Part shown: piece after piece, positions 24,745 through 57,761 of the stretch
Layout: each line of letters begins with the position of its first letter
Position numbering within the stretch: position 1 is the first letter of the stretch
Assembly: GCA_039810045.1 (NCBI GenBank)
Contig: JBDHWF010000005.1
Coordinates: 1-57,761, forward strand
Reading direction: 5' to 3'
Length of the DNA: 57,761 nt
DNA from: Chloroflexia bacterium
Lineage (GTDB): Bacteria > Chloroflexota > Chloroflexia > Thermomicrobiales > CADCWN01
Notes under the pieces: model-generated
What the model saw: only the letters and a program-made list of their open reading frames with translations
The model's database searches: none
What the model was told of the DNA's origin: nothing
Translations under genes and position numbers: made by a program

Positions 24745-26973
24745 GTGAACGATGTAGAGCTAGGTCGAGAACAAATTACCGTTGCGGCAAACGACACCCT
24801 TGATCGGGTCCTCGAAGCATTGCGCGCCACGACGAGCAATGCCGTTATTCTTGCCGTGGATGAGCGCAGCCCCCTGCTGATCAGCCTCCAACAGTTACAT
24901 ACCCTAGACGAAGTGGCACAGGCGCAGGGAGTCCAGGTTGCAATTGCCTCAACAAACAGAAAGCTGCTCAATGCAGCCAGGGTCTTTGGGCTGGAAGTTG
25001 TTGACGTACACGAACAACCACTGCTTGAATCAACCAGTTCACCGCAACTCCTGGCCGGGCAACCGCTAGGGCGACTCGACCTGCAGCGGCATGGAGACCC
25101 TGAGTTTGCACCAATAGCGCCCGAACCACAACAACAGGCGCGGGTTAATCTCACACCACCGCCAGCAACCGCCGACGACCTAACCGAGCTTGAATCCGCA
25201 GACGAACTGCCTGAAGCGCTGCTGACCACAACGCCGCCTACTGACGAAGACCAACAGGAAGCCCGTCTCGATCCGTATGGTCAGCCATATGATCCAGACG
25301 AAGCAGCGCAAGATGATCTGGCAGCGGATGATGGCTGGGATGAGCCGCAAGCCTACGACCCTGAGCAGGAGGAGTATGACCAGCAACCGCCACGCGGGTT
25401 AGCGGGCTACTGGCACGATGTTCGCGCCTGGATCGAGGCTCGCCGGAGCCGAAAAGCTCAGGCCGATTACGACGATGAGCAAGATGCGATTCTGGAGCCT
25501 GATGAAGACGGCTGGGATGAGCCTCCGTACCAGTTACGGCAAGCAGCCAAACCGATTATTGCCGATCACGCTACTACTGATGAGGATGAGGACGAACCAG
25601 CCGCCACGCCCTATCAGCCTGTCGTGCTGCCCTTTACTCCACGCAATGGGCGATCGCGACCACCCCAAAGTGAGCAAACGGCGCGGCTGCCTGTCATCAC
25701 CTCTGCCATCGCCTACGAACACGACCTTGACGAGGATGAGCCTGAGCTGGAGGAGGGGGACGAACGCTGGCAACCTGCCCCACACCGCGCTGGCACCCGC
25801 CACTTTGCCATCGGTAGCCTCTTGTTTACCTTGCTGATTCTTGGCAGTATTGTGGCAGTAATCCTCTACCTGCTCGTGCCAACCGCTACAGTGACGTTAG
25901 CGGCGCGCACCGGCCAAGTGACCACGGATTTTCGCGTGGTAGTAGCAGAGATTGACCCGAGTTCGCCCGAAGGGCAGCCAACCAATGCGCGTATTATCGT
26001 CCCTGCGAAGCGGCTGATTGTGCCAGTCAATGGGGCAGCAACCCGGCCTGCAACTGGTGCCCGCCTGGAGCCAGATCTGACGGCGGGCGGCGTAGTTATC
26101 CTCACAAATCCCTCTACCGCCGCAGCGACGGTGCCGAACGGCACACGCCTGGAAGCGACTGATGGGCGCATTTATGTCACCACCGAGGAAGTCACTGTCG
26201 CCGCCGCTGATCCATTTGGCGCAGGGGCATTCGGATCGGCCCCGGTCAACGTTGCCGCGACGATTCGCGGTAGTGGAGGCAATGCGCCGATTGGCGTAGT
26301 ACGCGGGCAATTGGCCAGCGGGATCTATTACACCAATAAGACCGTGCCGATTGCTGGCGGCAGCGACCGCCGCATCTCCACGATCTCTGCCCAAGACCGC
26401 GCCGCGGCCCAGGCAGCCGCTGAGGAAGCTGCCCGTGCGAAAGGCCAAGCGGCATTCAATGGCGCGGTTCCCGCAGGGAGTACGGTGATGCACGACACGC
26501 ATGGTGTTGGCAATTTTAAGGTGCAGTTCAGTGCTGCCGAAGGCACCGATGGCGATAACGTTACGGCCACTATTACTGCAGAGGCCACGGGGTTGGTCTA
26601 TCAGCCAGCCGAGGTTGAAGCACAAGCCCGCGACGAGGCAACCAAGCGGCTCAATAGCGCCGCCAAGCCAGGAGAGTCAGTAGTGGCTGGCACAGTGCAG
26701 ATCAATACCCCGCAACTGGTCGAAGATCTGCCTGGCCAGTTGACCTATAGTATTACTGGCGGAGCGCAAACTCGCGCCGTCCTTGGCACCGAAGCCGATC
26801 GCGATCGGCTGGCGCAGGATCTCGCCCATAAAGATGACGATGAAGCACGCGCTATTCTAGCCGCGCTACCTGGGGTAGCTTCATCAACGATTCAATATCA
26901 GACTGGCCCATTCCCGATGCGGATGCCCTGGTTATCTTCCCATATTCAGGTGCAAATTACTGAGGCCCGCTAA
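24745..26973 (+). CDS. Membrane-anchored baseplate J/gp47-like domain protein
   Basis: N-terminal alpha/beta domain, long acidic low-complexity linker, one TM (FAIGSLLFTLLILGSIVAVILYLLV), then A.G.V.LTNP..VP.GT.L...DG..Y.T.E and V.A...GSGGN baseplate-J-like motifs. Confidence 0.75.
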   Translation: MNDVELGREQITVAANDTLDRVLEALRATTSNAVILAVDERSPLLISLQQLHTLDEVAQAQGVQVAIASTNRKLLNAARVFGLEVVDVHEQPLLESTSSPQLLAGQPLGRLDLQRHGDPEFAPIAPEPQQQARVNLTPPPATADDLTELESADELPEALLTTTPPTDEDQQEARLDPYGQPYDPDEAAQDDLAADDGWDEPQAYDPEQEEYDQQPPRGLAGYWHDVRAWIEARRSRKAQADYDDEQDAILEPDEDGWDEPPYQLRQAAKPIIADHATTDEDEDEPAATPYQPVVLPFTPRNGRSRPPQSEQTARLPVITSAIAYEHDLDEDEPELEEGDERWQPAPHRAGTRHFAIGSLLFTLLILGSIVAVILYLLVPTATVTLAARTGQVTTDFRVVVAEIDPSSPEGQPTNARIIVPAKRLIVPVNGAATRPATGARLEPDLTAGGVVILTNPSTAAATVPNGTRLEATDGRIYVTTEEVTVAAADPFGAGAFGSAPVNVAATIRGSGGNAPIGVVRGQLASGIYYTNKTVPIAGGSDRRISTISAQDRAAAQAAAEEAARAKGQAAFNGAVPAGSTVMHDTHGVGNFKVQFSAAEGTDGDNVTATITAEATGLVYQPAEVEAQARDEATKRLNSAAKPGESVVAGTVQINTPQLVEDLPGQLTYSITGGAQTRAVLGTEADRDRLAQDLAHKDDDEARAILAALPGVASSTIQYQTGPFPMRMPWLSSHIQVQITEAR

Positions 26974-29366: not shown

Positions 29367-30719
29367 ATGGAGGCTGAACCAGAGAAAGAGCCCAGAGCGA
29401 TCCGCGAGGATATATTCATTGAAGCAGACGATGTGACGCATAGTGTACGTGGCTTCGACTTTGATAACCTGTCCACGTCACAGGTGGTAGGTCTAGCTAC
29501 TGGCGCGGCTGCCCTGCTCGGGACAATTGTCGCAGCCTTGGGGCCAGCGCAAACGGATCAACCGCGCCGCGACTTCAAAGCGGTGGGCGATGGGGGCAAA
29601 GGGAAACCAATTGTTGCCGTGGTCGAAGGCCGCAAAATCTCTGACCGCACCAGGAAACAACTACGCCGTCAGATTGATACCCTTCAGGAAGAAATTAATC
29701 GGCTTGAGCCAGCCGTAGAGAAGCAACGCAAGGAGCGTGGGATTATCGCAGCGGATGAACTGCTTGTCCCTGTGTCAGAAAAGGAGCAACCCCCAATGAG
29801 TGATGAAGCAGTATTAGCGGTCTTGAAGAATGGGAAGTTAACTCGTAAATCACGGAAACAACTTCGCAAAGAAGTTGACGGTATTCGGAAAGATATTGAT
29901 CGGGTAGACAAGGCGATTGCGAAAAAGATTCGCAGTAATCAGCGGCAGGCCAACATTAACGAGGCCCGCGCTGCCGTGGGCGAAGCAGTTGGGAATGTCG
30001 GCGATAACCTGGGCAAGAAGATTGCCGCCGTTGGCTCAGCGACCGCCGCTGCCGCTGCACCAATCATCGAACGTGCGCTCAATGCTGAAAGTCAGATCCG
30101 CGACAATGCCCGCCAGGTGGCAGACAACACCCGTGATAGCGCCCGCAACTTTGCCGACACTGCCCGCGATCAAGGCGGCGACCTCTCCGACCGCGTGCGA
30201 AACGACGTTGTGCCAGCGGTAGCGGAACGAGCAACCAAAGTGCAGGGGTTTATGCAAGATGTCCTGCCACAAGTAGCGCAGCTTGTGCGCGATGATCTGT
30301 TGCCACAGGTGGTGCAGAAAGTACGGGAAGAGTTACTGCCTCAGGTAACTGATACTGCCAGTAAAGCGGGGGAAGCGGTGAGCGCCTTCGCCGCCACCGG
30401 GGCCAATGTTGGTCGCGATACCGCGAAAACAATCGCCAAGGGCGATCTGGCCAAAGAGGTCAGCAAGCAGACCTACCGTGGCCGGAAACAGGCCGCCAGC
30501 GCGCTTTCCAATCTGGCGGCGCAGCTTGAGCCACCAAAGCAGCGAAGCAACGCCAGCAATTTCTTCATGTTTGCGCTGATTGCCGCCATCGCTGGGGGCA
30601 TCATCTACATCTTCCAGAATGAGGAACGTCGGAAGAAGGTAGCCGAGACAACCCAGGCGTTAGTTGAGCAGGGCCGCGAGATTGTTCGCGACTTCCAGGG
30701 CTACGACGAGGAGTTCTAA
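29367..30719 (+). CDS. Hypothetical helical-repeat protein with N- and C-terminal hydrophobic segments
   Basis: GAGGAGG RBS; 450-aa ORF; apolipoprotein/LEA-like repeats; C-terminal TM. Confidence 0.85.
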   Translation: MEAEPEKEPRAIREDIFIEADDVTHSVRGFDFDNLSTSQVVGLATGAAALLGTIVAALGPAQTDQPRRDFKAVGDGGKGKPIVAVVEGRKISDRTRKQLRRQIDTLQEEINRLEPAVEKQRKERGIIAADELLVPVSEKEQPPMSDEAVLAVLKNGKLTRKSRKQLRKEVDGIRKDIDRVDKAIAKKIRSNQRQANINEARAAVGEAVGNVGDNLGKKIAAVGSATAAAAAPIIERALNAESQIRDNARQVADNTRDSARNFADTARDQGGDLSDRVRNDVVPAVAERATKVQGFMQDVLPQVAQLVRDDLLPQVVQKVREELLPQVTDTASKAGEAVSAFAATGANVGRDTAKTIAKGDLAKEVSKQTYRGRKQAASALSNLAAQLEPPKQRSNASNFFMFALIAAIAGGIIYIFQNEERRKKVAETTQALVEQGREIVRDFQGYDEEF

Positions 30720-35395: not shown

Positions 35396-35412
35396 GGTGT
35401 GAACGTGGACAG
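35396..35412 (+). repeat. 17-bp motif GGTGTGAACGTGGACAG, copy 1
   Basis: Exact match to the copies at 35429, 39612, 44778 and 47671. Confidence 0.97.
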
Positions 35413-41242: not shown

Positions 41243-41413
41243 GCACAACTTCGCCAATTGGCTGTCAGCACAAGGCTCATTTCCTGCTTGTAGCAATTGA
41301 TAATAGACATTCCCATAACCTTGTACCTGCGTAGACTATTCGACATGAATTGACATATTCGCTATATTTCCCCGATCAAACAGCGAGCGCTGCGCGTGAA
41401 GGGAGGAATGCTG

Positions 41414-42616
41414 ATGCAGATTCGTCGCTGGCGACGCACTGTACGACTGAGCGCTACCGCGATCATCGTACTGCTCTTGCTTGCCCCTGGCGCAACAGCA
41501 TTGGCCGCGCCAATCACCCGCGAACAAGCGCTGGTTCCCCCAATCGTCCCATTCCCTGGCGCAGTCACCTTTCGTCTTTTTGCCACCCGTGAAGGGCTGG
41601 TTGGCGGGATCACCGCGAATGGGCATCAGATCAAAGAGCGCGATCGCTTTGTTGCCCTGCCTTCGAAGGCAGCACTGGCGAAGAAAGATGGCTACGACAA
41701 GCAAGTATTGGTCTCCTATAAAGGGCGTCAGGCAGTTGCGCCAGTCTGGGATGTTGGACCGTGGAATATCAAAGATAACTATTGGGATCCACCAGCAGCC
41801 CGGGTAACGGGCAACGGCTTGCCGCGTGGTTGGCCCGCTGCCCAGGCCCAGTTCTTCGACAAATATAATGGCGGGATTAGCGATAAGGGCTATGTCGTGC
41901 GTAACCCCGCCGGCATCGATCTGGCTGATGGCCTGTTTTGGGATGACCTGAAAATGACTGATGGCGATTGGGTCGATGTCACCTTCCTCTGGCTCAGCCC
42001 CGGTGGAGCCTACTTCAGCCAACCAATTGACCCACAAGTGCGCCAGCCAATCGCCCCTTTCCCTTCAACAGCAACAAAGCGCTATTTCAGCGAAACCGGC
42101 CATAGTCTGGCCGACCCATTCAAGCAGTATTGGGAGCAACACGGCGGCCTCGCACAGTTCGGCTTCCCGCTAACCGAGCCATACCGCGAGCGCAGCATCG
42201 ATGATGGCAAAGAGTATCTGGTGCAATATTTTGAGCGGGCGCGGTTTGAGTATCACCCCGAGAGCGCCAACCCTGAGTATCAGGTGTTACTCGGCTTCTT
42301 GGGGAAAGTGTTTCATCCACCTGATCCACCAGTTCCCGCCAAGCCCAACGCCCGCTTCTTCCCAGAAACGGGGCACAATCTCGATGGGCTCTTTCGGAGC
42401 TATTGGGAAGCGAATGGTGGTCTGGCGATCTACGGTTTGCCAATCAGCGAGGAGATCAGGGAGGTCAGCCCAATCGACGGCAAGCCATACACGGTGCAGT
42501 ATTTTGAACGGGCGCGGTTCGAGGCACACCCAGAATACGCCGCACCGTACAATGTTTTACTCGGCCATCTTGGTCGCCAATTGCTCGACCTACGTGGGGC
42601 TTTCCCCGTGCGCTAG
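41414..42616 (+). CDS. Secreted protein: RlpA/double-psi beta-barrel-like domain plus two Chloroflexi-type surface repeats
   Basis: Signal peptide; TANG..FVALP...VWDVGPW...GIDL; two repeats (Y/F)F.ETGH.L...F..YW...GGL...G.P..E...VQYFERARFE.HPE. Confidence 0.8.
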   Translation: MQIRRWRRTVRLSATAIIVLLLLAPGATALAAPITREQALVPPIVPFPGAVTFRLFATREGLVGGITANGHQIKERDRFVALPSKAALAKKDGYDKQVLVSYKGRQAVAPVWDVGPWNIKDNYWDPPAARVTGNGLPRGWPAAQAQFFDKYNGGISDKGYVVRNPAGIDLADGLFWDDLKMTDGDWVDVTFLWLSPGGAYFSQPIDPQVRQPIAPFPSTATKRYFSETGHSLADPFKQYWEQHGGLAQFGFPLTEPYRERSIDDGKEYLVQYFERARFEYHPESANPEYQVLLGFLGKVFHPPDPPVPAKPNARFFPETGHNLDGLFRSYWEANGGLAIYGLPISEEIREVSPIDGKPYTVQYFERARFEAHPEYAAPYNVLLGHLGRQLLDLRGAFPVR

Positions 42617-43240
42617 GTGGGCCTGATCATTACGCCGTAGAAATGTCGCAGGCTGTCCTGCTATCCACGCAGCAGGGTCAATGGTGACTTCACTTACGGC
42701 GCAGTTGCCAATCCCCATGTGGGCATTCGGCCATTGATCGCCTGGTTCACGCAAGAGGTAACTGATCGCCCAGGCCAAGGCCCCACCATGCGAAACAAGC
42801 ACGACTGCCTGAGCATCGTCGAGATGTTGCGTAATCAGGTTGTCCAGTTCTGCAACGATGCGGGCGGCAAAGATCGCGCCACTTTCTCCACCAGGCCAGG
42901 TAAAGGCGACCCCATCTTGCTGGAACGCCGCCAGTTGATCGGGGAAACACTCTGCCCACTGCGCGAAGGTCAGGCCGGCGGCCTGGCCTACATTGATTTC
43001 AGCCAGGGCGGGCCGGGGCTGAGGCGTCAGGCCCGTTGCTGCCCCGATGATCTGTGCCGTCTCAAAGGCCCGTGCAAACGGACTACTGTAGAGGCTGCCC
43101 AGATCGCCACGCTGCGCAAGCGCAGCAGCGAGCGCCCGCGCTTGCTGGCGGCCCTGATCAGTGAGCGGATCATGCTCATCTTGGAGTTGGTGGGCAAGGT
43201 TGCCCGTTGTTTCACCATGCCGAACAAGGAGCAGGCGCAC
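42590..43240 (-). CDS. Histidine phosphatase family protein (paralog 2)
   Basis: RHGE, SSP..RA..TA, AEIN.G, SHGG. Confidence 0.92.
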   Translation of the reverse strand: MRLLLVRHGETTGNLAHQLQDEHDPLTDQGRQQARALAAALAQRGDLGSLYSSPFARAFETAQIIGAATGLTPQPRPALAEINVGQAAGLTFAQWAECFPDQLAAFQQDGVAFTWPGGESGAIFAARIVAELDNLITQHLDDAQAVVLVSHGGALAWAISYLLREPGDQWPNAHMGIGNCAVSEVTIDPAAWIAGQPATFLRRNDQAHLAHGESPT

Positions 43241-43242
43241 GC

Positions 43243-43914
43243 TCAGACCTCAGTTGATTCCTCAGCCATTTCGCCTAATGCCAGCACCTCCTCTGGCTCA
43301 GGCGACAGATGGCTAATTTCATTGTGGCAGACAAAGGTAACGGCTTGCTCATCTTCATCAATGGTGACTTCGGTCAGTGAGCAGTTGTGCAATTGATGAC
43401 GGGGCCATTGCTCACGCGGTTCTCGTAGCAAATGATCGATCATCCAGCCCAAGGCGCCGCCATGTGAGACAACGATGACCCCGCCCCCTTCCAGCCGATG
43501 CGCACTAATAATCGCATCAACCGCTGCGGCTACCCGCGCAGCCAATTGCAGGCCACTCTCCCCCCCAGGCCAAACGAAACTTGGCCCCAGTTCGTTGAAT
43601 TGCTCGGCTAGGTCGGGGTGGGCAGCGGTCCATTCATCGAAGGTCATGCCAGCAGCGTCACCCAGGTTAATCTCAGCCAGGTCGTCTAACGGAATGGGGC
43701 GCAGGCCGATTGCTGCGCCAATCGTCTGCGCCGTCTCCAGAGCGCGGGCGGCAGGGCTGCAATAGAGTACTCGCAGGTCAGCCCGTTCGGCCAGGAGTGC
43801 GGCAATCTCGCCAGCCTGGATGCGTCCACGCTCGGTAAGATGGTCGTCGTCCATTTGCAGCCGACGGCTCTGATTACCAACCGATTCACCATGCCGTACC
43901 AGTAGTAGTTGCAT
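43243..43914 (-). CDS. Histidine phosphatase family protein (paralog 1)
   Basis: RHGE, CSP..RA..TA, AEIN.G, SHGG. Confidence 0.92.
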   Translation of the reverse strand: MQLLLVRHGESVGNQSRRLQMDDDHLTERGRIQAGEIAALLAERADLRVLYCSPAARALETAQTIGAAIGLRPIPLDDLAEINLGDAAGMTFDEWTAAHPDLAEQFNELGPSFVWPGGESGLQLAARVAAAVDAIISAHRLEGGGVIVVSHGGALGWMIDHLLREPREQWPRHQLHNCSLTEVTIDEDEQAVTFVCHNEISHLSPEPEEVLALGEMAEESTEV

Positions 43915-43922
43915 TGCTATCC

Positions 43923-44666
43923 TTATTCCTCGCTGAGGATCACCCCGCCAGCCGGTGTCACCATAATTGTATGCTCAAACTGCGCGGCCCAACCACCATC
44001 GAGAGTACGCACACTCCACCCATCCGCGTCGAAATCAACATCAGGTGCGCCTTCGACCAGAATAGGCTCAATGGTAATCACCAGCCCATCTTCCAAGATT
44101 GGCCCCGTCCCAGGGCGGCCAACAAATGGCACATCGGGGTCTTCATGCAAGTTGTGGCCCAAACCATGCCCAGTAAATCCCCGAACCAGGTTGAAGCCGC
44201 GCCGTTCGCCGTAACGCTGCATCGCGGCGCTAATATCGCCAACGCGCTTCCCCGTTACCACCGCCCGAATGCCCGCCTCCATTGCGCCATGTGTTGCGGC
44301 GATCAGCCGTCGCCGTCTGGCCCCAATCGCCCCAACTGGCACTGTTACGTTGGCATCGCCACAATACCCAGCCAGGCGCATTCCCGCGTCGATACTAATA
44401 ATGTCGCCTGCCTGCAATTGCTGGTCGCCCGGAACACCGTGCAGCACGACATCGTTAACCGAGGTGTTGATGCAGCCAGGGAAACCTGCCTCAACGTTAA
44501 AGATTGGCTCTGCGCCGATCCGCGCCAGGTAGTTGGCGGCGTGAGTATCCAGCGTCGCCGTGGTAATCCCCGGTTCAACCAGCGCCGCCAACTCCTGCAA
44601 CAGGCTCATTGTGGCGCGGTTCGCTCGCCGCAATCCGGTCAGATCTGCCAAATCTTTGATAACCAT
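43923..44666 (-). CDS. map: Type I methionine aminopeptidase
   Basis: SVND.VLHGVP, DIISID..GYCGD, GHGLG..LHEDP, TIEP, AQFEHT; all metal ligands present. Confidence 0.93.
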   Translation of the reverse strand: MVIKDLADLTGLRRANRATMSLLQELAALVEPGITTATLDTHAANYLARIGAEPIFNVEAGFPGCINTSVNDVVLHGVPGDQQLQAGDIISIDAGMRLAGYCGDANVTVPVGAIGARRRRLIAATHGAMEAGIRAVVTGKRVGDISAAMQRYGERRGFNLVRGFTGHGLGHNLHEDPDVPFVGRPGTGPILEDGLVITIEPILVEGAPDVDFDADGWSVRTLDGGWAAQFEHTIMVTPAGGVILSEE

Positions 44667-44884: not shown

Positions 44885-47563
44885 GTGAGAAAGATGAACG
44901 ATAGCCCAACCCGCCTGACAACGTTAGCGAACGGCCTGACGATCTTGACCCATGAGACCCATACAGCCCCCGTCGCCACGTTTTGGGTCTGGTACGGAGT
45001 GGGCGCACGCAATGAAATACCAGGATATACGGGCATCTCCCACTGGGTTGAGCATATGCTTTTCAAGGCTACGCCCAAGCTCGGTGCTGGGGAAATATTT
45101 CGGCTGGTCAACAAGAACGGCGGGACGCTGAATGGATTTACCTCGCTCGACTATACCGCCTATTATGAACCCCTTCCTGCCGATAAACTCGACCTCGCAA
45201 TCACGATTGAAGCAGATCGGATGATCAACGCTCGTTTCGACCCTGCTGAAGTGGCTTCTGAGCGCACAGTCATTATCTCGGAAAAGCAGGGCGGCGAAAA
45301 TTATCCGGCCACCCACCTGCGCGAAACAACAGTCGCCGCCGCTTTTCGGATTCATCCGTATCGGCAGGGAGTCATTGGGTATCTCAGTGATCTGCAAGCG
45401 ATCACGCGTGATGACCTCTATCACCATTATCAAACCTATTACGCACCAAATAACGCGACCGTCGTAGCTGTGGGCGATTTCCAGACGGAGGAATTGCTCG
45501 CCAAGATTGAATCTGCCTTCGGGGCGATCCCTCGTGGCGGTGCAATACCGCTCGTCCGCTCGGTAGAGCCAGCCCAAGAAGGTGAACGACGGGTGTTGGT
45601 TCGTCGTCCAGGGCCATTACCGCAATTTCTGGCGTCCTATCATGCTCCAGCAGTGACCAGCCCTGATGTTTTTCCGCTGATGGTGCTGGATGCGATCCTC
45701 AGTGGGGCTGGGGCGATGGGGATGTCGGGCGGTGGGGCGAGCCTGGGGCGATCATCACGCCTCTACCGCGCGCTCGTTGAAACGGAGCTTGCATCCAGTG
45801 CCTCGAGCAGTTTCAGTCTGATGAAGGATCCGTACCTCTTTAGCCTCTCGGCTGGGCTGCGCCCCAATGTATCATTGGAACACGTTGAGCAGGTCTTCTT
45901 TGAGCAGGTTGATCAACTGCGAAGCCAACCCCCCACTGATGAAGAGCTGGCCCGCGCCCTCAAAGGACTACGTGCCCAATTCGCCTACGCCAGTGAAGGG
46001 GTAACCAGTATTGCCTACTGGCTCGGCAGTATGAATACGATTAATACCTATACTATGTATGAGCAATTCTTACCTCAACTTGCCACAGTTACCGCTGCCG
46101 ATGTACAGCGAGTGGCGCAGCAATACCTCACCCCAGACAACCGCACGGTAGGGCAATTTATCCCTACCGCTGATGGCGGCAATGCCGGGACACCAGCAGC
46201 CGCGAGTTACTGGCCGCTGCAAGAATATCGCTGGCTACAGCAGCCACCAGTTAACGCAGCAGCCACGCCGACTGAGCCAGCGTCTGGTAAGCCCACCCAC
46301 GTAGCGCTTGAACGGCAGACCCTGCCTAATGGCATTGTCGTCCTGGGCAATGAACGACTAGAGTCGCCAGCGGTAGTCGTGCGGGCGCGGATGCGTGCTG
46401 GGGCCTTCTATGATACGCAGGCGACTGAAGGGTTAGCGCGGCTTACTGCACTAATGTTGCAACGCGGCACAGCAAATCATAGCTTTGCCGAACTCAATGC
46501 CTTAACTGATGCATTAGGGGCATCAATTGGCGTGGACCCTGGGCGGATCGTAATTGACCTGCGCGTGCGCTGTCTGGTCGAGGATTTCGAGCAGATGGTG
46601 GAGTTGTTGGCTGATCTGCTACAACGGCCTACCTTCCCACAGGTTGAACTCGAGAAGGTGCGTGGGCAAACCCTGACCGCGATTCTCCAGGGTGATCAAG
46701 ATACTGGGACGCTGGCCGAGCGTGGTTTGCGCACCAACGCATACCCTGCTAATCACCCCTACGCCCGCTCCGTGATTGGCACCAAAGAGTCAGTGATCGC
46801 GCTCGACCGCGCGGCGCTAGTCGAATTCCATCAAGCATATTATCGGCCCGATCTACTTTCTATCTCAGTCGTTGGTGGGGTGCCGTTTGCCGAAGCGCTT
46901 GAGGTAATCACGACCCACTTCGGACAGTGGCAGGTACCTGGACCACAGCCCACCTTAGTGATCCCACCAGCCGCTATGCCCACTGCCCGTCAGTGGCATG
47001 AAGCCAACCTAGCGGGGAAATCACAGTCAGATATTGCGATGGGTCATCCTTCAATTCCCCGCACCGACCCTGACTATTATGCGCTGGAACTTGCCAATAT
47101 GATTCTCGGTCGCTTTGGGCTTGGCGGGCGATTAGGCAAGAGTGTACGGGAAAAACAGGGGCTGGCCTACTTCACTGGCAGTAGCCTTGCCGGAGGGTTG
47201 GGGCCAGGAGCCTGGGCTGCCCGCGCTGGGGTCGCACCAGAAAACGTTGAGCAGGCAGTGGACAGTATTTTGGCCGAGATTGAGCAGATACGGACAGCAC
47301 TGGTGAGTGCAGAAGAAATGACTGATGCGCTCGATTATCTGACTGGCTCACTACCGCTGGGCTTAGAAAGCCAGGACGGTGTAGCACGGCTCGCCCTGGA
47401 TATTGAGTTCTACAACCTGGGGCTGGACTACCTGGATCGCTATGCCGCTATTCTGCGGGCAGTCACGCGTGAACAGGTGCAGCAAGCAGCGCAGCAGCAT
47501 CTGCACCCCGACCACATGGTAATCTCCGTCGCTGGGCCACCACGTACGCCCAAAGCCGAGTAA
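44885..47563 (+). CDS. M16 zinc peptidase with two fused M16 modules
   Basis: HWVEHMLFK (HxxEH) with a downstream E in the first half; the second half lacks the motif. Confidence 0.92.
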   Translation: MRKMNDSPTRLTTLANGLTILTHETHTAPVATFWVWYGVGARNEIPGYTGISHWVEHMLFKATPKLGAGEIFRLVNKNGGTLNGFTSLDYTAYYEPLPADKLDLAITIEADRMINARFDPAEVASERTVIISEKQGGENYPATHLRETTVAAAFRIHPYRQGVIGYLSDLQAITRDDLYHHYQTYYAPNNATVVAVGDFQTEELLAKIESAFGAIPRGGAIPLVRSVEPAQEGERRVLVRRPGPLPQFLASYHAPAVTSPDVFPLMVLDAILSGAGAMGMSGGGASLGRSSRLYRALVETELASSASSSFSLMKDPYLFSLSAGLRPNVSLEHVEQVFFEQVDQLRSQPPTDEELARALKGLRAQFAYASEGVTSIAYWLGSMNTINTYTMYEQFLPQLATVTAADVQRVAQQYLTPDNRTVGQFIPTADGGNAGTPAAASYWPLQEYRWLQQPPVNAAATPTEPASGKPTHVALERQTLPNGIVVLGNERLESPAVVVRARMRAGAFYDTQATEGLARLTALMLQRGTANHSFAELNALTDALGASIGVDPGRIVIDLRVRCLVEDFEQMVELLADLLQRPTFPQVELEKVRGQTLTAILQGDQDTGTLAERGLRTNAYPANHPYARSVIGTKESVIALDRAALVEFHQAYYRPDLLSISVVGGVPFAEALEVITTHFGQWQVPGPQPTLVIPPAAMPTARQWHEANLAGKSQSDIAMGHPSIPRTDPDYYALELANMILGRFGLGGRLGKSVREKQGLAYFTGSSLAGGLGPGAWAARAGVAPENVEQAVDSILAEIEQIRTALVSAEEMTDALDYLTGSLPLGLESQDGVARLALDIEFYNLGLDYLDRYAAILRAVTREQVQQAAQQHLHPDHMVISVAGPPRTPKAE

Positions 47564-47592
47564 GGAAGCAAATAGCGGTAGCGGTTCGGAAG

Positions 47593-47621
47593 ATCAGGGC
47601 TGGCTCAGAGCCAGCCCTGAT
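47593..47621. terminator. 14-bp inverted repeat after the M16 gene, at the left edge of the origin region
   Basis: ATCAGGGCTGGCTC-a-GAGCCAGCCCTGAT. Confidence 0.65.
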
Positions 47622-47630
47622 GTATGGTGA

Positions 47631-48180
47631 TTATCCACACCTGTGGAAAAATGGTGGATAGAATCTGTCACTGTCCACGTTCACACCGCTGGTTAATCTC
47701 ATCGACGATTGCTTATCCACAGCATGATCAACTTATCCACAGGGAATGATCAGTTATCCACAAGCCAATTGGTTGCTCGGCATCGTTCTAACAGCTTTGG
47801 GCAGGGAAATGTGTCATTTCCATTGGATTATTGCCAAATTTGTCATCGTAACTGCTTCTCGATCTAGAACAGCAATGATCATAATGATTGTGGATAACTC
47901 TGGGGAAAGCAGGGGATAAGTTCCCAAATCTGGGGATAAGGTTGGGTATAGTCCGTGGGTGGTTTGTGGAGAAGATCGCTTCGCACTACGCCGTTCTCCA
48001 CAGGCCCACCAGTTGTGGACAAGTTATCCCCAGGCTTTGGCAAAGGATTTTCCTTGTCATTGCTAAGGAAATGAGCGTTATCCACCGTATCCACACCCCC
48101 TACGATCGAATACTGGTTTAATCCTGATCTTTAATCAAATAAATAAAGATGGTCGAATCCTTCGTGGCAAAAGTGGATAA
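47631..48180. other. Probable chromosomal replication origin (oriC)
   Basis: Five perfect TTATCCACA boxes (47631, 47713, 47733, 47754, and 47889 reverse). About nine 1-mismatch boxes (47642, 47931, 47965, 47994, 48014, 48024, 48078, 48087, 48172). AT-rich tract at 48117-48150. Gene-free. Confidence 0.85.
47671..47687 (-). repeat. 17-bp motif, copy 5 (inside the oriC candidate)
   Basis: CTGTCCACGTTCACACC between DnaA boxes. Confidence 0.97.
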
Positions 48181-48274
48181 CGTTACGAACGAACTAGCCC
48201 CTTGCTATACTCACCATCCGATATACAGAGAACCCTTCCAGGCTGCTAATAGCCGAAGGGAAAGGGAGACAGCA

Positions 48275-49270
48275 ATGCGCAACCTGCGAACTGAGGGAGG
48301 CAGCGATCAATCGGCGACTCAGCCACGGCTGGCCGTTGATCTTGGTGATGCCACTATTCACGCTGCCCTGATTGATTCCGCTGGGCAGATTATTGCCCGG
48401 CAACAGGCGCTAACAGGGCTACAGGATGGCGTAGAGGCCGTTCTTGACCGGGTAGCGAAGACGATCAATATGGTGGCTATCGAAGCCACCATAGCCGCTG
48501 ATACCCCGGTGGGCGTTGCGCTGGCGGAGTCACTGCAAGCAGCGGCGGAGGTGAGGCAAGTTGCGCCCACCCTGGACTGGCGCAACTTGCCGCTACGGGA
48601 TCTGCTGACGGCACGAATCGGCAAACCAGTAACGATTGACAGCGGTATCCATGCTGGGACGTATGGCGAGTGGCGCTATGGCGCTGGTCAAGGTGCCAAT
48701 CACTTTATCTTTATTAACTGTGACAATGAGGTGAGCGCAGGAATTGTGATCGATGGACACCTTTTGTTGGGGCAGGCAGGGCGGGCGGGCGCAGTTGGGC
48801 ATATGGTCATCACCGTAGATGGCCCACAGTGCCACTGTGGGGGCCGTGGCTGCGTAGAAACGTATGTAGGGGGCTGGGCGATTGAATCAGCCGCCGCCGC
48901 GCTTCTAGAGGCTGGTATGCCCAGTATCCTGACGGAACTGATGGCTGAGCGTGGCGAGAAGCTTAGTGGTCCGTTGATCAACTATGCCGCTGCCCATGAT
49001 GATGGTGTGGCACTTGAGGTGCTGGCGCGGGCTGGACGGGCGCTGGGGTTTGCCGTGGCGTCGTTGATCCAGCTGTTTAATCCGGAGATCGTGGCGATTG
49101 GCGGTGATGTGATCAGCGCTGGTCAATTCCTGTTTGATCCGTTGCAGGAAGCGTTGGCGGAACAACTGCTTCAAGATTTTGAGCAAAATATGCAGGTAGT
49201 CCCTGCGGTACTTGGCCGGGATGCTCGCTTACTTGGCGCTGCTGCTTTGACCCAACTGGTGGCACACTGA
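48275..49270 (+). CDS. ROK-family protein with degenerate catalytic motifs
   Basis: ROK fold with H..CHCGGRGCVETY zinc motif; kinase motifs altered; GGGAG RBS before ATG 48275. Confidence 0.88.
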   Translation: MRNLRTEGGSDQSATQPRLAVDLGDATIHAALIDSAGQIIARQQALTGLQDGVEAVLDRVAKTINMVAIEATIAADTPVGVALAESLQAAAEVRQVAPTLDWRNLPLRDLLTARIGKPVTIDSGIHAGTYGEWRYGAGQGANHFIFINCDNEVSAGIVIDGHLLLGQAGRAGAVGHMVITVDGPQCHCGGRGCVETYVGGWAIESAAAALLEAGMPSILTELMAERGEKLSGPLINYAAAHDDGVALEVLARAGRALGFAVASLIQLFNPEIVAIGGDVISAGQFLFDPLQEALAEQLLQDFEQNMQVVPAVLGRDARLLGAAALTQLVAH

Positions 49271-56330: not shown

Positions 56331-57761
56331 TCAGGTTGCCATAGGGACTATCTGTAGGGGAGTAGCGATCTGCTGACGTACCAGCAGGCACTCACCAGGC
56401 GCAAGGTCGTTGTGCTGCGCGGCGATCGTTGGTGATAAATGGAGGGCGCGTGCATAGGCGTGCTGTGCTTCTGGGGGGCAGGCAAAGAGCGCCAGCGTTG
56501 GGTGTAGTGCCAATAGTTGATCAACAAGGGTACGGGGCATTGCCGCGAATGACTCCGCCGCAGACCAGAGAGTGATACGTTGCTGTGCAACGAGGGTGAA
56601 TAACTCACCCAGCAGGGCTGGGCCAGTTGTTGCGGTTGCGACTGCCGTGAGATCATCGATAATCAGCAGTTGTTGCGGCTGTTCAGCGGCAGGTTGCTGA
56701 TAGAGTTGATCAAGAATGGCCCGCAAGGCGATCACCGTACACCCCAGACTTGATACGAGATGCTGCCCCGGTTGGTCAGGCTGTGCATCATAGATGGTGA
56801 CGCGGTGCTGATCGCGCTTTGGCACAGGAACGCGTTGCGCCCCGGTAGCGGCCAATAGTGCTGCTAGGTGTCGCGCTGGTTCACTGGTACTCTCTCGCAG
56901 ATGGGTGACTAACGCGCTGAGTTGGGCTGGTTCGCCCCAGGCCAGTTCGCCATCAGCCAACCCCAGCACCATCGCTGTCAGGTCGCCACACTCGTCTTCA
57001 CTCAAATCTGGGCAGAGATCGGTGAGCAGGCTAATGATCATCTTGGCCCAGTTGGTGACGCGCTCGGTTGAGGCTACGAGCGGTTGGTGCAACAAGGGTG
57101 TACCAAGGCTACTGAGCAGATCGCCAAGTTCCAGGGCTACTGCGTGATGGCGCCCTGCGGCTGCTGCGGCAAATGAGCGCCAGCCCCCACTTGTATCAAG
57201 CACCGTGATTGCGCGATCAGTCGCCAGTTGCCCGATTGCTAGGGTCTGCAAGACCACTGTTTGCGCCGTATTGATCTGGCCGATGGCACAGAACACTTCG
57301 TTGGGTACGAGATAGGTTGCAACACCATCACGGCGAAGGCCAAGCGGTAGGCCCTGATCATGGGCAATGGCTGAAGCAGGGAATGGCATAGCAGGCGTCA
57401 GCGGTGAGAGGAGCGCTGAACCACGTGTCGTCAGCAATAACCCACGTCCAAGCACGGGCGTGCTGAGTGGCGCACAAGAACGTAACATATCGTCACTACA
57501 GCCGGGCCCAAACGATGCCGCCAGGAACCCCAAGTGTTGGAGGGCTGTTTCCACATCGGCCCGCAGCGCCCGCGCCCCCGCTGGTTCCACGGAACAGGCG
57601 ATCAGCAACCGTGCTGGTCGTGGGCGATCTTCGCTCGTACTGCTTGCCGCCAGCAAGCTGAGTAACTCCCGTTGCTCAGCCAAAAGATCAGCAGTTTCCC
57701 CATGATCGCTCTGTCTACTGGGTCGACCAGCACGGCACCCCTCAATTTCATCGGTGATTGC
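56331..57761 (-). CDS. Degenerate VirB4/TraC (FtsK-HerA superfamily)-like protein; 5' end lies beyond the window
   Basis: The frame is open from 57761 (AITDEIEG...LLAEQRELL). Pattern .IGQINTAQT..ITVLDTSGGW..LLIIDDL..L..GECLLV follows the VirB4 C-terminal layout with broken Walker motifs. Confidence 0.6.
   Translation of the reverse strand, partial: AITDEIEGCRAGRPSRQSDHGETADLLAEQRELLSLLAASSTSEDRPRPARLLIACSVEPAGARALRADVETALQHLGFLAASFGPGCSDDMLRSCAPLSTPVLGRGLLLTTRGSALLSPLTPAMPFPASAIAHDQGLPLGLRRDGVATYLVPNEVFCAIGQINTAQTVVLQTLAIGQLATDRAITVLDTSGGWRSFAAAAAGRHHAVALELGDLLSSLGTPLLHQPLVASTERVTNWAKMIISLLTDLCPDLSEDECGDLTAMVLGLADGELAWGEPAQLSALVTHLRESTSEPARHLAALLAATGAQRVPVPKRDQHRVTIYDAQPDQPGQHLVSSLGCTVIALRAILDQLYQQPAAEQPQQLLIIDDLTAVATATTGPALLGELFTLVAQQRITLWSAAESFAAMPRTLVDQLLALHPTLALFACPPEAQHAYARALHLSPTIAAQHNDLAPGECLLVRQQIATPLQIVPMAT

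Follow-up and report, generated by a model that had tools for sequence, protein, structure and literature searches.

Does the chromosome of this Thermomicrobiales bacterium begin its replication in a 711-bp intergenic region (47564-48274) that is crowded with DnaA boxes and lies apart from dnaA? The region, with 47% GC against 58% for the genome, is part of a contig of 57.8 kb (C5) in a draft genome of 274 contigs (4.16 Mb, 58% GC, 96% complete); the entire contig was analysed and is referred to here as the window. A preliminary description had read the box cluster as a relocated origin and had named a DnaA-titration locus of the datA/DARS type as the alternative. As suggested by our analysis of the sequence, the whole intergenic region very probably serves this organism as its only DnaA-dependent origin of chromosome replication (oriC). 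The unique cluster, the AT-rich tract, the flip of GC skew and a conserved module that lies at the skew minimum in relatives together argue for an oriC and not for a datA/DARS-type locus. Directly observed, and described below, are how the region is built, that it is unique in the genome, how far it is conserved, and the change of skew.

The DnaA box TTATCCACA occurs 19 times in the window with at most one mismatch, compared to 7.8 +/- 3.0 in shuffled sequences. Fourteen of the 19 boxes, five of them perfect and nine with one mismatch, are packed into 47631-48180, well above chance, as about 0.07 would be expected per 550 bp. This count agrees with the number given in the preliminary description, and the back-to-back pairs at 48014(-)/48024(+) and 48078(+)/48087(+) were found as described there. 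With two mismatches allowed, the boxes at 47653 and 47911 join and the total in 47564-48274 rises to 16. In the genome-wide ranking this cluster comes first with 14 boxes, followed by a cluster of four (contig C111), and it holds five of the 13 perfect boxes of the whole genome. The module formed by the tandem boxes, CCCC and CTA is single-copy and no second true cluster was found in the assembly, which is 96% complete and whose gaps could in principle hide another one.

The runner-up cluster (C111:6780-6840) lies directly upstream of mraZ and is made of GTGGG-type repeats every 10 bp; it is the mraZ operator, a look-alike, and is accompanied by no skew change. In Thermomicrobiales this operator carries GTGGG/GTGGA repeats every 10 bp, in which a search recognizes two or three nearly perfect DnaA boxes. 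The first origin search in closed relatives relied on pairs of perfect boxes, and the true modules were then found by their layout; triplets with a spacing of 42 bp in genomes G040, G033 and G019 were discarded because they lie immediately before mraZ, carry CCCAC repeats with a 10-bp period and so represent its operator. In G040 the operator is exemplified by L097:10290-10345. The mraZ operator resembles the present locus in its two or three TTATCCACA-like words, but differs from oriC in its 10-bp GTGGG periodicity, its position next to mraZ and its lack of an AT tract and of a skew change.

The anatomy of the intergenic region was read from left to right and compared with an alignment of the oriC region from four species of the genus (alignment A1, 58% mean column identity), in which the sequence has diverged except for conserved blocks at the boxes, at the CCCC-CTA segment and at the AT tract. 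Just past the stop codon of the M16 gene lies a GC-rich palindrome (47593-47621, a self reverse-complement match), which is probably a transcript-end hairpin, albeit one without a T-run; the terminator scan made no call on it, nor did the promoter/terminator scan make any call in the origin region, and no Rfam family or tRNA was found in the window. The distal box group (47631-47661) consists of a perfect box at 47631(+), a box with one mismatch at 47642(-) and one with two mismatches at 47653(-), and a similar +/-/- group occurs in G038. A copy of the genus-specific 17-mer GGTGTGAACGTGGACAG follows on the minus strand (47671-47687). Next come three perfect boxes at 47713, 47733 and 47754 (47713-47762), all pointing rightward on the plus strand, whose spacing of 20 and 21 bp places them on one face of the helix; this triplet is kept as TTATCC(A/C)CA across the four aligned species.

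The gap of 126 bp between the plus-strand triplet and an opposed minus-strand array holds a spacer (47785-47885) with invariant columns outside any box. These conserved blocks, namely GTTCTAAC (47785-47792), CTAGAACA (47864-47871) and TGATCATAAT (47876-47885), are shared by the four species and may be bound by an architectural or regulatory protein; a GTTCTAC...GTAGAAC pair is present also in the origin of G038 (family f5). The opposed phased array on the minus strand (47889-47973) comprises a perfect box at 47889, boxes at 47911 (two mismatches) and 47931 (one mismatch), and a further one at 47965. The first three are spaced by 22 and 20 bp, the same triple array is found in G038, and the words TGTGGATAAC, GGGGATAAC and TGGGGATAAC are nearly invariant in the alignment. 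Three more boxes, at 47994(+), 48014(-) and 48024(+), occupy 47994-48032, the last two back to back.

At the right end of the region two abutting plus-strand boxes, TTATCCACC and GTATCCACA (48078-48095), face the predicted unwinding region. They are followed on the same strand by the GC cluster CCCC (48096-48099), which appears as (G/C)CCC in relatives, and by the segment CTACGATCGAATACTGG (48100-48116), which opens with the triplet CTA. This triplet, complementary to the DnaA-trio 3'-GAT-5', stands first in every family examined. The AT-rich tract at 48117-48150, the predicted DNA-unwinding element (DUE), starts 21 bp past the tandem boxes; its GC content of 17.6% makes it the lowest-GC 34-mer of the 57.8-kb contig and places it in the lowest 0.013% of the genome. 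Its part TTAATCAAATAA is conserved in the congeners. Beyond the tract a last box on the minus strand (48172-48180) faces back toward the DUE. The 711 bp contain eight GATC sites compared to a genome mean of six, and eight or more are present in 27% of genome windows of the same size; since GATC is not enriched, nothing points to control of the Dam/SeqA type known from E. coli.

On its left the region is bordered by a fused M16 peptidase gene of 892 aa (44885-47563, plus strand; Pfam Peptidase_M16 and M16_C) and on its right by a ROK-family gene (48275-49270, plus strand), both identified by Pfam and both as named in the preliminary description. The start of the ROK gene is likely the ATG at 48275, preceded by a GGGAGA ribosome-binding site, and not the longest-ORF start at 48149, as the long ORF aligns with its homologues only from residue 39-61 onward. 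A replication fork leaving the region leftward would meet the M16 gene head-on. The relatives of the M16 peptidase are found in Chloroflexota MAGs labelled Chloroflexia or Thermomicrobiales. The use of M16 as an origin marker was tried by searching 80 Chloroflexota loci for box clusters beside the M16 orthologue, and was abandoned because linkage of gene and cluster was confined to the same genus. Elsewhere in the window, four large ORFs matched no significant Pfam family: 24745-26973 (+, 742 aa), 29367-30719 (+, 450 aa), 41396-42616 (+, 406 aa) and 56331-57761 (-, at least 476 aa). Two tandem paralogous histidine-phosphatase (His_Phos_1) genes lie at 42590-43914 (-), and the list of longest ORFs prefers spurious plus-strand frames over this pair and over an M24 peptidase gene at 43923-44666 (-).

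The GC skew of the window changes at the same place. The best change-point on the contig falls at 47 kb, where the skew passes from -0.030 to +0.052 (t=4.4), and in strength it ranks second among the 77 contigs of at least 20 kb; a change from negative to positive is what an origin produces, and it looks the same in either orientation of the contig. A formally stronger change-point of this polarity (t=4.8) occurs on contig C55, at the 5-kb edge limit and without boxes. As a control for coding strand, a regression on 48 genes gave a side-of-origin effect of 0.049 +/- 0.009 (t=5.5) along with a strand effect of 0.033, and the genes of the minus strand have a mean skew of -0.065 to the left of oriC and of +0.041 to the right, although the switch here rests on a short right arm of only 9.6 kb with seven genes.

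A region homologous to this one is carried by the congeners G001, G002 and G003. The order M16-oriC-ROK is kept in G001 and G003, and in G002 about 5 kb separate M16 and the cluster; on the right side of oriC, beyond roughly the first 8 kb, gene order is scrambled between G002 and the present genome. Beyond the genus, the module was searched for as the pattern TCCNCANNATCCNCANCCCCTA with at most one mismatch in 121 genomes of the order. The search returned one match in the present genome and found the module in 35 of the 121 genomes, almost always as a single copy; these genomes represent 20 of 43 genera and each of the five families. Looser versions were recognized by eye in G032, G036, G040 (near 2.594 Mb) and G008 (near 1.778 Mb). 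None of the genes that flank the origins is common to different families, whereas the module is kept.

The relatives also allowed the skew to be followed over longer distances. In G032, closed in one contig of 3,614,371 bp, the cumulative skew of a contiguous stretch of 160 kb reaches its minimum at 1,928,341, exactly at the module. At the positions sampled, skew is below zero between 0.4 and 1.93 Mb and above zero from 1.93 Mb round to 0.1 Mb, a genome-wide sign pattern, as far as sampled, that fits a single origin at the module; dnaA of this genome (1,068,426) lies about 860 kb away, within the negative-skew arm. On the 2,429,122-bp contig C2 of G033 the local minimum (2,217,690) lies close to the module (2,215,680), with dnaA at 1,475,170, about 740 kb off. 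The cumulative-skew check proposed in the preliminary description, carried out on the window and on sampled relatives, thus came out in favour of an origin, with the switch at 47 kb in the window and a local minimum within 2 kb of the module in both closed genomes. Negative-to-positive skew was likewise seen around the clusters of G008, G040, G027 and G004; the switch lies about 9 kb from the module in G004. In three genomes with weak skew it is 10-25 kb off, and these three and G004 all show origin polarity.

The exception is G002. Its homologous cluster of 17 boxes (10,225-11,368 of contig C315; 136.6 kb, 67% GC) is flanked on both sides by a skew of about -0.1, i.e., there is no switch at the cluster. 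Further along the contig the skew drops to values between -0.3 and -0.4 and then, near 55 kb and thus 44 kb from the cluster, turns abruptly to +0.15 to +0.33, independent of gene strand; at this flip point neither boxes nor an AT tract were found. This pattern does not fit the oriC reading, and its amplitude is far above normal replication skew. Values of 0.2-0.4 over tens of kb were noted in G002 at C315:26000-112000 and at C24:45001-65000. On C24 the skew runs from +0.19 to +0.35, and other contigs of the same MAG are ordinary.

The absence of dnaA, dnaN, gyrB and parA/parB from the window, claimed in the preliminary description, was upheld by Pfam scans of its 45 ORFs, and rpmH is missing from the neighbourhood as well, the sole rpmH-like frame of the genome being located on contig C155. 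The dnaA gene was located on contig C73 (12038-13519) among unrelated neighbours, and neither dnaN nor a box cluster was found beside it there, in line with the proposed detachment of origin and dnaA. A second, weak Bac_DnaA match (PF00308) was observed at C132:5388-6368 (-). On visual inspection the translated frame shows a Walker-A motif and, at its N-terminus, a segment that is rich in Cys and resembles a zinc ribbon; these features suggest a helicase loader of the DnaC/DnaI type, and a similar frame of 280-330 aa is present in every relative checked.

Several other explanations for such a cluster have to be weighed. In E. coli, datA and DARS are clusters of DnaA boxes away from dnaA, with few boxes, no DUE and a location off the skew switch. 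An accessory site of this kind, at which DnaA would be titrated or recycled while the real origin fires elsewhere, would agree with a locus that is not beside dnaA or any replication gene and with the cluster of G002 that lies off the local skew switch. The present locus differs in its many boxes, in a DUE candidate adjoining oriented tandem boxes and in the skew that flips at this very place; the assembly holds no other box cluster except the mraZ operator, none near dnaA and no other candidate for oriC, and in the two closed genomes the module coincides with a local skew minimum and a sampled genome-wide sign change. As none of the marks of a datA/DARS-type site (no DUE, position off the skew switch, a separate oriC) was found here, the alternative put forward in the preliminary description did not hold up, and we consider it very improbable.

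The locus could also be the origin of a megaplasmid or second chromosome that would use the chromosomal DnaA, secondary replicons of this sort being present in Thermomicrobium and Sphaerobacter. Members of the order do carry large secondary replicons (PMC2615216), and a draft assembly cannot assign the contig to a replicon. However, the window contains the core housekeeping genes alaS, ispG, plsX, pyrB, map and ruvX on the flanks of the locus, no RepA or ParAB genes were found nearby and no plasmid similarity was found for the oriC region; furthermore, the module is single-copy and lies on the sole contig of G032 and on the dnaA-bearing 2.43-Mb replicon of G033, so this origin assignment appears slightly less probable still. 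Least probable of all is a transcriptional control region through which DnaA or a look-alike, MraZ, would regulate the ROK or the M16 gene. The mimicry of DnaA boxes by the mraZ operator in this order and the box at 48172, about 100 bp upstream of the ROK start, speak in its favour, but 16 boxes within 550 bp, facing both ways and phased at 20-22 bp, go far beyond what a promoter needs, the locus has neither the 10-bp GTGGG periodicity nor an mraZ gene, and the flanking genes vary between families while the module persists.

With the region read as oriC, a course of initiation can be proposed in which DnaA binding, the site of unwinding and firing within 47564-48274 are all predicted from the layout of the sites. 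DnaA encoded on C73 would first occupy the five perfect boxes and then fill the opposed phased arrays, i.e., the plus-strand triplet at 47713-47762 and the minus-strand array at 47889-47973. The abutting boxes at 48078-48095 would orient a DnaA-ATP oligomer over the CCCC spacer onto one strand of the segment that begins with CTA. The duplex would open in the 17.6%-GC tract at 48117-48150, where the replicative helicase would be loaded, possibly by the putative DnaC/DnaI-like loader encoded on C132, and forks would depart in both directions.

The proposed arrangement can be compared with the basal unwinding system (BUS), which was defined in incC of Bacillus subtilis by DnaA-boxes 6/7, a GC cluster, DnaA-trios and an AT-rich region (PMC6669920, PMC8287927) and was found bioinformatically in 85% of predicted origins (PMC8287927, PMC7561715). 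On the strand that carries the boxes the DnaA-trio 3'-GAT-5' appears as CTA, and typically 10-13 bp separate the trios from whichever box is better conserved (PMC8287927, PMC7561715). Like BUS, the present oriC has tandem boxes that face the unwinding region, followed by a GC cluster, a first triplet CTA and an AT-rich tract, and the first triplet follows the upstream box after 13 bp, a distance within the reported peak of 10-13 bp. Of the two boxes, the upstream one is nearer to consensus in three of four congeners, as in BUS; in the window both boxes carry one mismatch. A box of BUS, often one of a tandem pair, faces the trios from within 16 bp, and here the CTA lies 4 bp past the second plus-strand box in five families. 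Unlike in BUS, the two boxes abut without a spacer and the origin forms one block, not a bipartite structure around dnaA. BUS calls for three or more DnaA-trios in a row (3'-[G/A]A[T/A]-5', or in a looser form 3'-NAN-5'). Here CTA alone fits and is conserved, and a regular run of [G/A]A[T/A] trios was not evident after it: the next NTN run in frame with it starts at 48118 (TTA ATC CTG ATC TTT), an out-of-frame run ATA CTG GTT begins 14 bp after the box, and G032 and G040 have CTA CTA. Since no regular trio repeat follows the first triplet, the origin can be assigned to BUS only in part.

A second point of comparison is oriC of E. coli, which occupies the mnmG/gidA-mioC intergenic region and is not adjacent to dnaA, lying about 40 kb off. 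As at the present locus, the DUE is found at one end beside an oriented box, away from dnaA, and two arrays of DnaA sites oppose each other; the opposed phased triplets described here recall the two opposed DnaA sub-complexes at E. coli oriC. The present locus differs in that GATC is not enriched, the boxes are spaced by 20-22 bp and dnaA lies hundreds of kb away in closed relatives. Within the order itself, dnaN, dnaA, gyrA, gyrB, spo0J and gidA are dispersed in Thermomicrobium roseum, so that marker genes could not place its origin and GC skew had to be used instead (Wu et al. 2009, PMC2615216). That report describes no origin sequence, whereas the box architecture and the module were defined here and traced across the order. 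Separation of oriC from dnaA is an old, order-wide and normal state in Thermomicrobiales. Of the "relocated origin" of the preliminary description, the origin part is supported by the unique cluster, the DUE candidate and the skew, whereas the word "relocated", which hints at a recent event in this genome, is inapt because the separation is order-wide.

Furthermore, the surroundings of the origin carry a sequence peculiar to the genus. The 17-mer GGTGTGAACGTGGACAG is present in eight exact copies in the genome, five of which lie at 35.4-47.7 kb of the window (17 bp each, at 35396, 35429, 39612, 44778 and 47671), four of them on the left side of oriC at a distance of no more than 12.3 kb and one inside it; the remaining three were found at C28:33373 and at C164:63 and 6254. 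Each congener has nine copies with at most one mismatch, with no control matches, and the copies located on the oriC contig number eight of nine in G002, six of nine in G003 and three of nine in G001. Outside the genus the 17-mer is essentially absent, the sole match being one with a single mismatch in G006. Two ParB homologues are encoded in the genome (C57, C175), and canonical parS gave no match with up to two mismatches anywhere in it. Because ParB homologues are present and canonical parS is absent, GGTGTGAACGTGGACAG could be a non-canonical centromere or an origin-regulator site, and a parS-like or origin-regulating role is possible. A broader model, which we put forward only tentatively and regard as rather doubtful, would see the Thermomicrobiales oriC as a self-contained cassette in which the distal boxes, the two phased triplets that oppose each other and the tandem boxes-CCCC-CTA-DUE unit keep a fixed geometry while the neighbours have been reshuffled between families, and to which this genus would have added a second layer, about nine copies of GGTGTGAACGTGGACAG per genome clustered within about 30 kb of oriC, one of them inside it, as a candidate substitute for parS or as origin-regulator sites.

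E. coli, Caulobacter and cyanobacteria are well-known cases of an origin that does not adjoin dnaA, and the kind of origin described here is ordinary; it leaves the knowledge of replication initiation unchanged, and that replication genes are dispersed in this order was already reported in 2009. The practical consequences concern the search for origins in draft genomes of Thermomicrobiales, for which the usual markers dnaA, dnaN, gyrB and parB are useless and in which the mraZ operator imitates clusters of DnaA boxes and misleads searches that look for perfect ones. A simple diagnostic for oriC in such drafts is a pair of abutting DnaA boxes with CCCC and then CTA behind it, and an origin at the level of sequence is now given for this uncultured genus.
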